Shown: positions 1 through 64,000 of the stretch, piece after piece | How positions within the stretch are numbered: the first letter of the stretch is position 1 | Layout of the letters: every line of letters starts with the position of its first letter | Virus record (IMG/VR): IMGVR_UViG_2029527006_000005 | Strand: one strand, 5' to 3' | DNA: 64,000 nt | Origin: a virus | Taxonomy: Duplodnaviria; Heunggongvirae; Uroviricota; Caudoviricetes | Program-made: the position numbers and the translations under genes | The notes under the pieces: model-generated | Seen by the model: only the letters and a program-made list of their open reading frames with translations | Database searches by the model: none | Told to the model about the DNA's origin: nothing

Positions 1-124
1 TAGAAAAGCGTTCAGAGAACTTCTGTAGTTTATATGCTAGTACTGAAGACACATACACGTTAACTTTACTTAATAGTTCTTCTGGAACTTTAATGATTGC
101 TTCATTAATTTGATTATAATTCAT
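1..124 (-). CDS. Hypothetical protein, truncated at window edge ([18 protein letters not shown]...)
   Basis: ATG at 124 overlaps the end of the upstream gene; frame open to the window edge; N-terminal I-N-E resembles a prohead-protease site. Confidence 0.6.
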
Positions 125-647
125 CTTTGTCATCCCCACGTAGTTTAATCATACGTTTCGCAATACTTGTCATCTTGTCGCGTATATCACGCTTCACAAC
201 ACGGCCTGTACGGTCGTTCTTCCATTGAGCACCTTGGAAGGTATAGGTATCACCATCAGGAGCACGGAACTTGTGTCCAACGGGGATTTCAACGCTTTTG
301 AGAGAGTCTGGTGTTAGGGCATCCGTCCATTCACCAGTTTCCACATCGTACTTTAGACGTTGTTTTACAGCGTTTGGGTTGGTGTCATATTTCTGTTGTG
401 GGATCGCTTTAATTTTGCGATAAGGGTAGCGGTCACGTATGTAACGCCAAAGGAATTTACCTTTAGAATCCACACGGAGCATTTGGCGAACCATTGCTTC
501 AGGAACGTCATCGTACTCATAAGTTGTACCATTCTGGAAAGTAATATACAAGTCCTTTCCGTTGTGTTCAATTGTTTGTAAGTGTGATGATTCTACGTCT
601 GTAGGTGCAATAGCTTCGAGTAATCGTTTTAATAAATCGTTATACAT
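114..647 (-). CDS. KTSC-domain protein
   Basis: SSHLQTIEH...[17 protein letters not shown]...[16 protein letters not shown] matches the KTSC pattern; GGAG 8 nt before ATG. Confidence 0.8.
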
Positions 648-653
648 AAAAAA

Positions 654-700
654 AACTCCAAGGTTATTATCGAGTATTTATCCCGGTAAACCTTGGAGTT
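654..700 (-). promoter_or_regulatory. 12-bp hairpin/terminator sequestering the SD of the KTSC gene, with a late promoter (GATAAATA, 675-682) in the loop
   Basis: Perfect inverted repeat AACTCCAAGGTT (654-665) / AACCTTGGAGTT (689-700), followed by a U-run and ATG on the - strand. Confidence 0.7.
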
Positions 701-706
701 AATTAG

Positions 707-1258
707 TTAGATATCGCTAGGATAATCGCGACGGATTAGATTCTCTAGCGTTTGTAGTGCAGCTTCGTAGCTTTGTGGTTTCACAGTACTTGGCACGATA
801 TCCATACCAATGTTCTGACCTAGCTGTTCGTTGCCATTTTCAAACATTGCACCATAAGTAATGCACATTTCTTCGGAGAAAGAACCAATGGTATAAGCAT
901 GTTCTTTCCCGTTTAGTGCATGAACTACTTCCATACAACGCTTTTCATCGAAGTGGAATAGGTCACGACACATTTCAATTACATACTCAGCAGAACTATT
1001 TGGATCATCTAGCATTACTAGATCAAACATTGGAACGTTGAGGATGTTTTTCTCTGGATTATGAGAAAAGAATAAACGCAAACTTTCTTCAAGTACTGGC
1101 TTATTCACCACACCGTCTAATGAATTCCGTGCAACGGCTTTCACATAGTCGGTAATATCATGCTTACCAGCGATGTAGTACTTACTTTCGCCATAAGCAG
1201 CTTTAATCACACTATAAGAATCAAGTGAGAATACTTCTTGTACTTCAAGTTGTTTCAT
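707..1258 (-). CDS. clpS: ClpS-like adaptor protein (divergent)
   Basis: PMFDLVMLDDPNSSAEYVIEMCRDLFHFDEKRCMEVVHAL...GSFSEEMC follows the ClpS core pattern. Confidence 0.65.
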   Translation of the reverse strand: MKQLEVQEVFSLDSYSVIKAAYGESKYYIAGKHDITDYVKAVARNSLDGVVNKPVLEESLRLFFSHNPEKNILNVPMFDLVMLDDPNSSAEYVIEMCRDLFHFDEKRCMEVVHALNGKEHAYTIGSFSEEMCITYGAMFENGNEQLGQNIGMDIVPSTVKPQSYEAALQTLENLIRRDYPSDI

Positions 1259-1268
1259 GTTTACCTCG

Positions 1269-1775
1269 TTATTTGTTTTTGATTACACAGGTGGCTTTTT
1301 TACCCTGTACTTCAACCTTCTGAACAAATTCAACATCACCGAGGCGATTAACGAATTGTTTGAGGAAGGAAGTATTCTGCTCTAGTAGAGCTTGGTTACC
1401 AGCAATACGACCTTCAACTGCCATAACTACACGAACCTGCTTACCTTCACTGAGGAATTTACCAGCAGACTTAGCTTTAACCTTGAGATCGTTCTCTTGG
1501 GTTTTGAAAGAGAACTGTACTTCTTTAACTTGCGTTACGTTCTGCCGTTGCTTACGCTGTGCATCTTTTTCAGCTTGCTTGATTTCGAACTTGTGTTTGT
1601 TCAAATCAACAATCTTCACCACAGGCACATCGCCATCGTTTACTTGAATAAGGTCAAGCCCCAAAGCATCAGCACGGTTCTGAGCTTCTGAAATTGCCAC
1701 CACATTGCTACCAGCAGAGGTTACTAGACGTACTGATTTAGCTTTGATTTCTTTATTGGCAATAATTTCTTTCAT
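1269..1775 (-). CDS. infC: Translation initiation factor IF-3 homolog
   Basis: NKEIKAKSVRLV...EAQNRADALGLDLIQV...PVVKIVDLNKHKFE...VKEVQF...NDLKVKAKSAGKFLSEGKQVRV, both IF3 domains present. Confidence 0.92.
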   Translation of the reverse strand: MKEIIANKEIKAKSVRLVTSAGSNVVAISEAQNRADALGLDLIQVNDGDVPVVKIVDLNKHKFEIKQAEKDAQRKQRQNVTQVKEVQFSFKTQENDLKVKAKSAGKFLSEGKQVRVVMAVEGRIAGNQALLEQNTSFLKQFVNRLGDVEFVQKVEVQGKKATCVIKNK

Positions 1776-1809
1776 GTATGTTAGACTCCAGTCTTGTTAA
1801 GTTATGTCC

Positions 1810-1838
1810 ATTATATGACATTGGGAGGGGCTTGTCAA
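1810..1838 (-). promoter_or_regulatory. Consensus sigma70 promoter TTGACA-N17-TATAAT upstream of infC
   Basis: Minus strand reads TTGACA agcccctcccaatgtca TATAAT. Confidence 0.85.
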
Positions 1839-61978: not shown

Positions 61979-62810
61979 TTCTACCTTCCATCATTTTCAT
62001 TTCAATTTCAATTTGTCGTGTATGACTTGGTGTAAAACCATTAATTTCGAGTAAATCATCACGAATATTGCGTACATTCTTTTCAGTATTAAGTACTGAT
62101 CTAAATGCGTTGTTAACGAAAGATGTATAGTAGGAGAAGGGATTTAATTGTACAGCAGGTTTATCTTTTTTGTACAAAATGCTTTCTTTAAATAGTAAGG
62201 CATTTTTTACTAGTTGTATTCTTGCATCGCCCATCATTTCATCTAAGTACGTATAATTTCGGTAGTTAGTTTTATGGGAGATTTCTTCTGCAAGTTTGAT
62301 GAACATCTTTCCTAATTCATTAGTCATTCTTCCGTGAGTTAAGCAAAACTCACCGCTGTCCGTATCACCGAACCAGTGTGAACGAGCTACTTCATAGAAA
62401 GTTGCGTCTTCATCGACAATGTAATGTTTGAATGGTTCGAAGTTAACACGAATTTTAGCACCTTTCTCTTCTGGTATGTGTTCATCCGTAATTACGCGAA
62501 TCACAACTTCATCGATTGGTACTGTTGTTAGGAACAAGCCACGCTCATCAGCAGCTTCTTTAGCTTTCTTCGCTGATAGGCCGTCTTCTGCTCTAATCCG
62601 TTCAACTGTCTCGTTGTTGAGGCGTTTAATACGTGCTGCACTAGCTTTTTCAAGTAGTTCTTCATCAATTTCATTCACATCGAAGACGATGTAATCGTAC
62701 ATACTGTAGCACTCATCAATTAGCCAGCAGTATGACATTTTACTGAGATGTATTTCTCGTAGTAAGTCAGCGTTATTCAAATACTTTTTACGCTTGGGTT
62801 TGGTTATCAT
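61965..62810 (-). CDS. gp55: Late sigma factor (gp55-like) with insertion
   Basis: YLNNADLL, NYRNYTYLDEM..DA, NPFSYYT...NAF; start moved to 62810. Confidence 0.85.
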   Translation of the reverse strand: MITKPKRKKYLNNADLLREIHLSKMSYCWLIDECYSMYDYIVFDVNEIDEELLEKASAARIKRLNNETVERIRAEDGLSAKKAKEAADERGLFLTTVPIDEVVIRVITDEHIPEEKGAKIRVNFEPFKHYIVDEDATFYEVARSHWFGDTDSGEFCLTHGRMTNELGKMFIKLAEEISHKTNYRNYTYLDEMMGDARIQLVKNALLFKESILYKKDKPAVQLNPFSYYTSFVNNAFRSVLNTEKNVRNIRDDLLEINGFTPSHTRQIEIEMKMMEGRNGSI

Positions 62811-62863
62811 ATTGTAACACTCCATGTATTTTTTTCATGAGACCATCCGTGTCCCACCTCACT

Positions 62864-62891
62864 ATTATATCACATTTTTCGAGTTTGTCCC
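62864..62891 (-). promoter_or_regulatory. Phage early/middle promoter GGGACA-N16-TATAAT for gp55-47-46
   Basis: Motif copy. Confidence 0.75.
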
Positions 62892-62896
62892 AAAAT

Positions 62897-62904
62897 TATA
62901 AATA
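62897..62904 (+). promoter_or_regulatory. T4-type late promoter TATAAATA
   Basis: Exact consensus upstream of baseplate genes. Confidence 0.7.
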
Positions 62905-62933
62905 TATTATAAGTCTTTTTATGGAGAATTTTT

Positions 62934-63665
62934 ATGATAGACCGTCGAATCAGATTGAGACCACGCCCTGCGGCTCAAAACTACGTATACGGGGATAGTG
63001 GCAATTTAAGCCAACCTACACTCCTGTCAATACTTAGAAGTACTAACGGGATGGTCTGGAATTATACACCTACCATTACCGAGCAACGTTCAGTGAGCTA
63101 TGAAACTCAACAAACAATGCACAGTAACGCAAACTACAACAACTACAAAAACACATCTAACGCCATAATTTCAGTACAAGGAGATTTTTACTCCAACACT
63201 GCAACTGAAGCTATGTATACGCTAGCATGTATGAACTTTATTCGTGCAAGTTCCCTAATGGACTTTGGTCGTCAGGCAGCAGTAGCTAACAACCCTAACG
63301 TAGCAGTTGTTGGTGCTCCACCACCAATTTTACTATTCAGTGGATATGGTCGTTATATGTATAACGATGTTCCAGTGATCATTAAGTCCTATAACTTTAA
63401 CTTCCAAAATGATGTTCCTTACATTCAAGTACCAGTTGATTCAATCACTGCTAAATTTAATGTAACGGACAAAGATTCTCGTGCATTTTTTAATAACTTA
63501 AGAGCACAAGGACTAATGAATAAAGAAAACGAAGTGTGGATACCACAAAAGCTACCAATTACACTTCAACTAGAAGAACAACCTACGTCAGATTATATGA
63601 CGAAGGATTTTAACTTAAACGCATTTAAACGTGGTGCACTAATGAGAAAAGGAGGATTCATTTAA
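62934..63665 (+). CDS. Baseplate tail-tube initiator/cap-like protein (gp48/gp54-like)
   Basis: YTPTI, GAPPPILLFSGYG, VPVIIKSYNF resemble tube-fold baseplate proteins. Confidence 0.6.
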   Translation: MIDRRIRLRPRPAAQNYVYGDSGNLSQPTLLSILRSTNGMVWNYTPTITEQRSVSYETQQTMHSNANYNNYKNTSNAIISVQGDFYSNTATEAMYTLACMNFIRASSLMDFGRQAAVANNPNVAVVGAPPPILLFSGYGRYMYNDVPVIIKSYNFNFQNDVPYIQVPVDSITAKFNVTDKDSRAFFNNLRAQGLMNKENEVWIPQKLPITLQLEEQPTSDYMTKDFNLNAFKRGALMRKGGFI

Positions 63666-63979
63666 TGGCTTCTACATATAGTCAGTACTCACCGTATGCA
63701 AAAGTACGTCAAACATGGTACTTAGATTACAACCTACCAATCGGTATTATCCCTGCTGATACCGATGTGGATTATACTATTCCAGCAGAATACGCAGAAC
63801 AGCCTTGGCGTTTATCATACGATTTGTATGGTAATGAACGCTTATACTACGTATTTGCACTTTTAAATCCAAATATCTTGGTTGACCCAATTTATGATTT
63901 TACAGCAGGTACAGTTATCCGTATTCCATCACTACAACGAATCCAAACTTACTTAAGTAGTCCACGCCGAGTCAAATAA
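63665..63979 (+). CDS. Baseplate wedge gp53-like (LysM-like) protein
   Basis: Reads on +; PWRLSYDLYGNERLYYVFALLNP...DP..DF..G..IRIP. Confidence 0.75.
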   Translation: MASTYSQYSPYAKVRQTWYLDYNLPIGIIPADTDVDYTIPAEYAEQPWRLSYDLYGNERLYYVFALLNPNILVDPIYDFTAGTVIRIPSLQRIQTYLSSPRRVK

Positions 63980-64000
63980 AAGGAGTTTATATGGCTAATC

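Follow-up and report, generated by a model that had tools for sequence, protein, structure and literature searches.

Background

HIP1 (GCGATCGC) is a highly iterated octamer palindrome of cyanobacteria, and a conserved cytosine methyltransferase has its target within it. The subject of the present analysis is a hexamer palindrome, AGTACT, in a stretch of 64,000 nucleotides of phage DNA (Caudoviricetes; IMG/VR virus record IMGVR_UViG_2029527006_000005), the whole of which is referred to as the window. AGTACT was found there 131 times, one site per 489 bp. Its excess is a property of the DNA that is shared by a whole phage lineage and maintained in it. AGTACT resembles HIP1 in being a short palindrome far above expectation in coding and non-coding DNA, placed at silent positions, specific to a lineage and of unsettled function. 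The two differ in that HIP1 is an octamer of cellular genomes and AGTACT a hexamer of lytic phages, which appears to be unmodified, has no conserved cognate methyltransferase and is also found at fixed promoter positions.

Chi (GCTGGTGG), KOPS and DNA uptake sequences are genome-wide words kept dense by selection for a DNA-processing machine, with density counting more than the single site, and AGTACT may resemble them in this. All of them are asymmetric and their orientation matters, whereas AGTACT is a perfect palindrome, neither asymmetric nor strand-biased, and about ten times commoner here than Chi. A sequence-only reading of the window had compared AGTACT to HIP1 and to Chi or KOPS, which proved to be the right category.

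Stoperators of Cluster A mycobacteriophages are 13-bp asymmetric sites, present in about 25-35 copies per genome, oriented with transcription and bound by a known repressor. They resemble AGTACT in that many copies are found within genes and at promoters; the sites described here are palindromic, number about 1000 and belong to a lytic phage. In nucleoid occlusion of E. coli, distributed sites with a central AGTACT (GTGAGTACTCAC) are bound by the dimeric helix-turn-helix protein SlmA, and G1, T2, A4 and G5 of each half-site are required in the 12-bp site GTRAGYRCTYAC (PMC3020112). SlmA is a protein of the host order; its sites share the AGTACT centre and the wide distribution with the phage sites, which lack the outer GT...AC. 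Literature searches (AGTACT with phage, RaK2 with ScaI, phage iterated palindromes) retrieved no description of an AGTACT excess in these phages.

Enrichment of AGTACT in the window

Genes were predicted with a simple open reading frame (ORF) caller, resulting in 78 genes that cover 94.5% of the window. Dinucleotide-preserving shuffles of the window (n=100) contained 21.3 AGTACT on average (standard deviation 4.4, maximum 32). For the 129 genic sites, synonymous codons were permuted within each gene, by which protein and codon usage are kept fixed, and 32.1 +/- 5.3 sites were expected (z about 18). The sequence-only reading, which had called AGTACT highly iterated throughout the window, had itself named a shuffle of this type as the test that could overturn the claim; the excess persisted. 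Pooling of synonymous codons over all genes gave 29.4 expected sites, and shuffling of the codon order gave 24.3. Under the synonymous null, AGTACT ranked first among the 4096 hexamers (z 19.6), and the next six words all overlap AGTACT.

Successive 10-kb sections contain 27, 25, 15, 24, 11 and 19 sites, followed by 10 in the final 4 kb. An earlier manual count of about 27 sites in the first 10 kb was exact, and all sites listed individually at that time are present. The estimate of about 20 sites each for 39-49 kb and 57-64 kb was correct for the latter (20) and too high for the former (16).

As had been stated from the sequence, sites occur in all three reading phases: 65 as AGT-ACT, 50 as nnA-GTA-CTn and 14 as nAG-TAC-Tnn, against 16.9, 11.2 and 3.9 expected under the synonymous null. 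The excess is similar in the three phases (3.6- to 4.5-fold), which is not what a translational or dipeptide cause predicts. The signal is therefore not that of one dipeptide, as also proposed before, nor of codon bias. It acts at the DNA level, with a roughly fourfold excess in each phase, and is kept by selection. Altogether, 129 of the 236 silent opportunities to write AGTACT are used (55%). Ser-Thr is written AGT ACT in 65 of 99 cases (about 15 expected), and Val-Leu is written GTA CTN in 81 of 115 (about 30 expected).

AGT, ACT, GTA and CTA are among the preferred codons, and a maximal-order Markov model yields an observed/expected ratio of 1.03 for AGTACT in the window. Both points would agree with an excess that arises secondarily, from codon usage, a preference for codon pairs or amino-acid composition. 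The ratio of 1.03 means that the excess is already present in the pentamer AGTAC/GTACT. Compared to first-order Markov expectation, AGTACT is enriched 9-12 fold in the window and in the related phages 7t3, BF, RaK2 and CRJP21, so that the Markov comparison suggested at the outset was positive at first order and neutral at maximal order. However, shuffles that preserve protein and codons give 32 sites instead of 129, no phase stands out in its fold excess, and non-coding DNA of the relatives has a 14-16 fold excess. The next relative Atu_ph07, at a similar G+C content (37%), uses only 2% of its opportunities. A codon, codon-pair or amino-acid artefact was rejected based on the three shuffles and the non-coding excess, and its probability is considered negligible.

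GTAC without a preceding A and without a following T is not enriched (176 observed, 210 expected; both strands), whereas GTAC with one of these flanks is enriched 2.1-fold and with both flanks 6.1-fold (both strands). The nine classes of one-mismatch neighbours were found at 0.99-1.76 times the synonymous expectation, compared to 4.0 for AGTACT, and none is depleted; recognition is thus close to all-or-none. On the coding strand, the sub-words NAGTAC and GTACTN are symmetrically enriched. The scrambled word ACTAGT shows no enrichment. A longer underlying motif was rejected: the flanks of the 131 sites are near background, as they are in this lineage generally. No 7- or 8-mer in the window exceeds the hexamer signal, except for a small count of GAGTACTC, and a strong CAGTACTG extension was not seen in this lineage.

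Distribution among phages and hosts

The DNA polymerase gene of the window (39709-42729, minus strand) has about 85% nucleotide identity to that of Salmonella phages 7t3, SE_PL, PHA46 and Munch and Klebsiella phage fENko-Kae01, and about 76% to that of Asteriusvirus, Eneladusvirus and Mimasvirus jumbo phages. Between the window and 7t3, the major capsid protein is fully conserved (100% identity). The window is collinear with 239-303 kb of 7t3, with 70-85% identity over 60.9 kb. Judged from these alignments, the window comes from a Rak2-like jumbo phage and shares about 84% identity with Salmonella phage 7t3. Its G+C content is 38%, and by 7t3 annotation its genes belong to replication, recombination, head and tail.

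AGTACT was counted over whole records, with the reversed word TCATGA as a control (Table 1). XbC2, XaC1 and each of the five enterobacterial-type genera that were tested show the excess, with 853-1356 sites per genome. The simplest history would be that the trait arose once, at the root of the enterobacterial-type Rak2-like clade. Under the synonymous null applied to whole genomes, 744 genic sites were observed in 7t3 (202 expected) and 926 in BF (234 expected). Opportunity use in the AGTACT-rich genomes is 49-55% genome-wide and 0.37-0.67 per 20-kb bin, and is alike across gene-size classes. The chromosome of E. coli K-12 contains 400 AGTACT in 4.64 Mb (one per 11.6 kb), compared to 1147 TCATGA; the window is thus about 24 times denser in AGTACT than that chromosome. 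Among the first 100 K-12 sites listed, there was a single close pair and no region of high density.

Table 1. Counts of AGTACT and of the reversed control word TCATGA in complete phage records
Phage	Group	AGTACT	TCATGA
7t3	Rak2-like, enriched	853	145
CRJP21	Rak2-like, enriched	1022	145
BF	Rak2-like, enriched	1072	152
fENko-Kae01	Rak2-like, enriched	941	150
Kaldavass	Rak2-like, enriched	1114	174
RaK2	Rak2-like, enriched	937	142
GAP32	Rak2-like, enriched	1011	169
XbC2	Rak2-like, enriched	1105	186
XaC1	Rak2-like, enriched	1356	130
Atu_ph07	next relative, not enriched	25	82
LR756511	next relative, not enriched	24	214
PA5oct	next relative, not enriched	15	40
Vibrio phage 2.275.O	next relative, not enriched	81	98
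T7	classic coliphage, depleted	4	13
lambda	classic coliphage, depleted	5	8
T5	classic coliphage, depleted	23	40
P1	classic coliphage, depleted	1	35
N4	classic coliphage, depleted	13	28

The restriction to enterobacterial-type genera, with no excess in the Pseudomonas, Agrobacterium and Vibrio cousins, would be expected if AGTACT were read by a factor of the enteric host. The phage could then recruit or titrate a DNA-binding protein, or moderate a nuclease in a Chi-like manner. The host Chi word is enriched in the window beyond codon usage (11 copies, 2.1 expected), so that silent-site tuning toward host-read words does occur here. However, all five classic coliphages deplete AGTACT, which argues against a general benefit, and the word is rare in E. 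coli K-12. In addition, XbC2 and XaC1 keep the excess though their records list a Xanthomonas host, and the phage sites lack the outer GT...AC needed by SlmA, the one known host protein with AGTACT at the centre of its site. A host-encoded reader is considered unlikely. SlmA itself was rejected as the reader: full SlmA sites number 0 in the window and 0-1 per genome, and the GTR flank of the SlmA site is present at 0.009-0.031 of the phage half-sites, compared to a background of 0.025-0.030.

Retention and spacing of sites

Retention was analyzed between the window and 7t3 for sites at which the covering amino acids are unchanged, and the expectation was derived from codon-to-codon substitution frequencies outside the motif. 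AGTACT was retained at 67 of 92 such sites, compared to 39.8 expected; the conservation at synonymous positions that the sequence-only reading had proposed as a check was thus observed. In the alignment, 69 sites are shared, 52 are present in the window only and 36 in 7t3 only. Four-fold degenerate sites are near saturation between the window and BF, RaK2 and CRJP21 (identity 0.45-0.50; 0.40-0.42 if saturated), yet the occupancy of shared opportunities is still correlated (odds ratios 2.2-3.5). With conserved Ser-Thr only, the odds ratios were 2-3 at borderline significance, with an occupancy of 65-81%. As in HIP1-type words, silent sites are maintained beyond drift. Positional persistence is modest.

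Occupied sites are slightly more evenly spaced than under random occupancy in the whole genomes of 7t3 and BF (coefficient of variation 0.95 versus 1.02, P 0.015 and 0.019). Within the window, even spacing was not significant. Ser-Thr and Val-Leu are 1.4-1.5 times as frequent genome-wide as Thr-Ser and Leu-Val (p 1e-8 to 1e-14), a shift that is small and not significant in the window of core genes. Taken together, these data would fit a large number of sites under weak selection, for which density counts most.

A signal of this kind could be a long template site of the phage primase-helicase, palindromic to serve either strand and dense enough for lagging-strand priming to be frequent on phage DNA and rare on host DNA. 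Priming is consistent with the mildly even spacing, the lack of an essential single site and the 24-fold contrast to the host, by which AGTACT behaves as a signal of density. It is also consistent with the nearly all-or-none recognition and with the presence of a primase and a helicase in the phage (Table 2). However, the known phage primases have recognition sites of three to five bases, which need no enrichment. Primase and helicase are core genes that are present also in the AGTACT-poor outgroups, and priming would leave the fixed promoter positions unexplained. A priming site is regarded as very improbable.

Non-coding DNA and promoters

Outside ORF calls, 108 AGTACT were found in 7t3 (7.5 expected) and 148 in BF (9.4 expected), corresponding to the 14-16 fold excess. 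Non-coding sites of the relatives are located in sigma-70-type promoters, as AAAAGTACTTGACA ... AGTACTnTATAAT, and also in terminator stems. In 7t3, BF, RaK2 and CRJP21, the histogram of AGTACT positions has two sharp maxima, 7-8 and 27-28 bases upstream of the -10 hexamer (counted from its first base), and the same histogram has no such peaks in the outgroups PA5oct and Atu_ph07. These two fixed places in early sigma-70 promoters of the relatives lie directly upstream of the -10 hexamer and across the first T of the -35 hexamer. In the window, none of 17 promoter-like matches carries AGTACT. The window therefore holds the intragenic class alone, except for the site at 57027 in the spacer of a ribosome-binding site.

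In BF, some pairs of AGTACT 18 bp apart (about 9042-9065 and 13296-13319) form TACTG-N10-CAGTA, which matches the CTG-N10-CAG core of LexA boxes. A distance of 18 is a small local peak among AGTACT pairs in 7t3 and BF.

Avoidance of other palindromes

In 7t3, BF, RaK2, CRJP21 and the window, about 25 of the 64 palindromic hexamers have counts of zero or nearly so, a pattern that belongs to DNA facing Type II restriction. Of the siblings of AGTACT, CGTACG and GGTACC have been removed completely, and TGTACA is neutral. AGTACT is the site of the Type II enzyme ScaI and, as in restriction-site avoidance, is depleted in the classic coliphages; in the Rak2-like genomes its deviation has the opposite sign. 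The earlier remark that enrichment runs against the palindrome avoidance of phages holds within one and the same genome, and the purging of other palindromes makes the single enriched one stand out more.

Purged words include CTGCAG, CAGCTG, AAGCTT, CCATGG, GGTACC, CGTACG, GAGCTC and GCATGC, and the set varies by lineage. AAGCTT is absent from 7t3 and the window and occurs 76 times in BF; GATATC was counted 107 times in 7t3 versus once in BF, and CTTAAG 25 times in 7t3 versus 0 in BF. The window contains 52 CCSGG and 1 CCWGG, and 7t3 contains 214 and 4, respectively. The reverse was found in BF, RaK2 and CRJP21, with 2, 55 and 15 CCSGG and 145, 228 and 304 CCWGG. A C5 methyltransferase is encoded by CRJP21 and not by 7t3, and two relatives have methylated CCWGG; retention of these sites thus seems to follow the protecting enzyme.

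Methylation and search for a reader protein

The sequence-only reading had also suggested AGTACT as a methylation site. A phage DNA methyltransferase with AGTACT as its target would tie abundance to methylation, as proposed for HIP1. For RaK2, two putative methyltransferases and a resistance to many restriction enzymes (data not shown) were reported (PMC3622015). A Dam-family protein (PF05869), the sole clade-wide methyltransferase, is conserved among the AGTACT-rich phages and was missing in both PA5oct and Atu_ph07. BF encodes one N6/N4 enzyme and CRJP21 one C5 enzyme. However, 7t3 and fENko-Kae01 encode no enzyme of PF01555, PF02086 or PF00145, despite their 853 and 941 AGTACT. Comparison of native and amplified DNA of phages Hallingskeid and Kaldavass by nanopore sequencing gave GATC, as N6-methyladenine (6mA), and CCWGG, plus TGCAT in Kaldavass; the modified motifs were as many as the predicted methyltransferases, and AGTACT was not among them (PMC11780129). 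With 1114 AGTACT in Kaldavass, a methylation signal there should be easy to see. Motifs were found by manual inspection (PMC11780129), and the nanopore evidence is thus good, not final. The clade-wide Dam-family enzyme fits the 6mA in GATC of these two relatives, and the purging of about 25 palindromes is what unprotected DNA does. The suggestion of a methylation site was not confirmed, and methylation as the cause of the excess is regarded as highly improbable. In the same study nicked DNA was reported for Pseudomonas phage Rembedalsseter alone and for neither jumbo phage (PMC11780129).

Candidates for a protein reading AGTACT were selected from the 530 ORFs of 7t3. Homologues in BF, RaK2 and CRJP21, with none in PA5oct or Atu_ph07, were found for 91 of them. 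These were scanned against Pfam, 70 small proteins singly and 89 in one pooled scan. The names obtained were a sigma-70-type factor, the Dam-family enzyme, an HNH nuclease, SIR2, a ParE-like protein, PNKP, NrdD/G, dCMP deaminase, two NUDIX proteins and lysozymes. Not being syntenic in BF, the HNH gene looks mobile, and its single AGTACT in 639 bp is what a mobile gene would have. As a partner of AGTACT, no endonuclease apart from this HNH gene was identified; with PF01555, PF02086 and PF00145 enzymes also lacking in 7t3 and fENko-Kae01, no ScaI-type restriction-modification pair was identified. Neither a Vsr-type nor a cytosine-methyltransferase partner for AGTACT is conserved (Pfam scans).

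The sigma-70-family factor (regions 2 and 3) is encoded at 26922-27659 of 7t3. It is kept in the AGTACT-rich genera, was not detected in PA5oct or Atu_ph07, and is additional to the sigma-factor-annotated gene of the window (Table 2).

Proposed function of AGTACT

The reading that we favour, with about even confidence, is that AGTACT serves as a recognition word on unmodified double-stranded DNA for a putative symmetric factor that is linked to early promoters in the relatives. The word would be written genome-wide in enterobacterial Rak2-like jumbo phages, about every 260-490 bp, and weak purifying selection would hold each of roughly 1000 sites per genome. The reader would be a putative dimeric protein or a restriction-enzyme-like binder, symmetric on double-stranded DNA, and is probably phage-encoded and active on unmodified DNA. 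As AGTACT has fixed places in early sigma-70 promoters, early transcription control is probably one of its roles. The intragenic copies may serve to spread the same factor over the genome, by which the phage DNA would be marked or organised.

Several results weigh against such a reader. The full-genome search for a cognate methyltransferase or DNA-binding protein that the sequence-only reading had advised was made with the relative 7t3 and found none that tracks the AGTACT trait: Pfam detected no helix-turn-helix or similar DNA-reading domain among the 91 clade-specific proteins, about 50 of which have no match. Two basic, clade-specific proteins of the window were rejected as candidates, and their families are confined to this phage group. 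The very basic protein of 77 residues encoded by 7771-8004(-) is predicted to form a helical hairpin without structural match or DNA-reading fold, and the predicted fold of the KTSC protein encoded by 114-647(-) matches other KTSC domains only and no DNA-reading fold. Given GTAC, the outer A and T are nearly independent, and the full palindrome shows no extra cooperativity. Lost sites are not replaced nearby above chance between the window and 7t3, and with this high turnover (88 unshared sites) and no local compensation, no single intragenic AGTACT is essential. Finally, the retention figures would be the same under selection and under a drive by biased repair or conversion.

The last point leads to a lineage-specific drive, in which biased repair, mismatch correction or gene conversion would turn silent and non-coding positions into AGTACT and no reader with a phage function would exist. 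Very-short-patch repair drives CCWGG in E. coli. A drive agrees with the independence of the outer letters, the uncompensated turnover, the failure to find a binding protein and a use of AGTACT that is uniform over the genome, gene-size classes and non-coding DNA. It also agrees with the single AGTACT in the mobile-looking HNH gene. However, depletion of the substrate would be expected from a very-short-patch process, and each of the nine neighbour classes lies at 0.99 or higher; the one-mismatch deamination product AGTATT/AATACT has an observed/expected ratio of 1.21. The very-short-patch type is therefore not supported, and the partner enzymes that it uses are not conserved. Fixed promoter placement and mild even spacing are unexpected from a blind drive, and an enzyme of such specificity would itself be a reader. 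A drive is considered rather improbable.

Coming back to a recognition word, a dedicated reader of phage or host origin might also tell AGTACT-dense phage DNA from host DNA and direct a process to one of them, which is a doubtful proposition at present. If it were true, phage DNA could for example be spared from a nuclease, transcription shut-off limited to the host, or priming or packaging confined to phage DNA. AGTACT would then do in these cytosine-unmodified T4 relatives the job of hydroxymethylcytosine in T4.

Phages are expected to delete short palindromes. This phage deletes about 25, yet spends more than half of its silent freedom on AGTACT, and the writing of this word is enough to shift dipeptide frequencies of proteins genome-wide. 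A strong, lineage-wide and sequence-specific process acting on about 1000 sites per genome is implied. If the reader were identified, a novel means by which a virus marks, organises or regulates a chromosome of unmodified DNA could come to light, and a tractable experimental model for the long-unexplained highly iterated palindromes would be at hand. AGTACT density is also a simple signature of this phage clade in metagenomes, and ScaI would cut these genomes into very small pieces unless the sites were protected.

Other features of the window

Coordinates are listed in Table 2. The gap at 27732..30437 covers conserved core genes, for a recombination protein homologue and a structural protein (27925-30212, minus strand), which are old genome residents and use 0 of 7 opportunities. 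In the longest AGTACT-free stretch lie the 5' part of the polymerase gene and, from the tail-fibre region, two variable genes with weak or no matches in relatives. Genes in 43154-44325(-) and 57530-58750(+) have little or no similarity even to 7t3 (28%, 54% and 25% identity) and represent variable cargo or tail-fibre-region genes within an otherwise collinear core; 57530-58750(+) uses just 3 of 13 AGTACT opportunities.

Table 2. AGTACT sites, site-free stretches and selected genes of the window
Feature	Position	Strand	Remarks
AGTACT outside ORF calls	39..44		window edge; may belong to a gene cut by the window end
AGTACT, phase 0	785..790	-	AGT ACT, Ser-Thr (class n=65); in gene 707-1258(-)
AGTACT, phase 2	1092..1097	-	CCA GTA CTT, Pro-Val-Leu (class 50/92 opportunities)
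AGTACT, phase 1	1177..1182	-	AAG TAC TAC, Lys-Tyr-Tyr (class 14/45 opportunities)
Closest AGTACT pair	15183..15197		starts 9 bp apart
Helicase	17534-19069	-	7t3 annotation
Primase	19081-20139	-	7t3 annotation
Second-longest AGTACT-free stretch	27732..30437		2.7 kb; spans genes 27925-29091(-) and 29100-30212(-)
Second 9-bp AGTACT pair	33751/33760
Longest AGTACT-free stretch	41710..44925		3.2 kb; from coordinate list
12-bp AGTACT pair	52838/52850
Sole clearly intergenic AGTACT	57027..57032	+	between GGAG ribosome-binding site and ATG of 57037-57528(+)
Endonuclease VII homologue	57037-57528	+	7t3 annotation of syntenic gene
Sigma-factor-annotated gene	61965-62825	-
Chi octamers	15206, 15943, 17997, 25974, 33622, 50255, 51961, 53329, 57171, 58103, 58649		11 copies

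Genes on the minority (plus) strand, e.g. 5651-7048, 35157-36389 and 57530-58750, use 12 of 36 opportunities, compared to 117 of 200 in majority-strand genes (Fisher p 0.006). The difference has the same direction in 7t3 (0.39 versus 0.51, p 1e-4) and BF (0.50 versus 0.56, p 0.07). A lower use on the minority strand would not be expected for a palindrome.

The 7771-8004(-) protein contains 26% Lys plus Arg. Its predicted helix of 50 residues ends in a basic stretch (…RNRxANKxAKASRRKNRK), which loosely recalls the basic region of basic leucine zipper (bZIP) proteins. A contig of 361,872 bases carries a protein cluster that includes one gene of the window.

The Chi octamer of E. coli and Salmonella is present in the window on both strands (6 plus, 5 minus), with 0.6 copies expected from dinucleotides. 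The excess is smaller in 7t3 (24 versus 9.3) and BF (29 versus 15.2); PA5oct has 1 copy and Atu_ph07 has 14. This enrichment suggests selection for protection against RecBCD.

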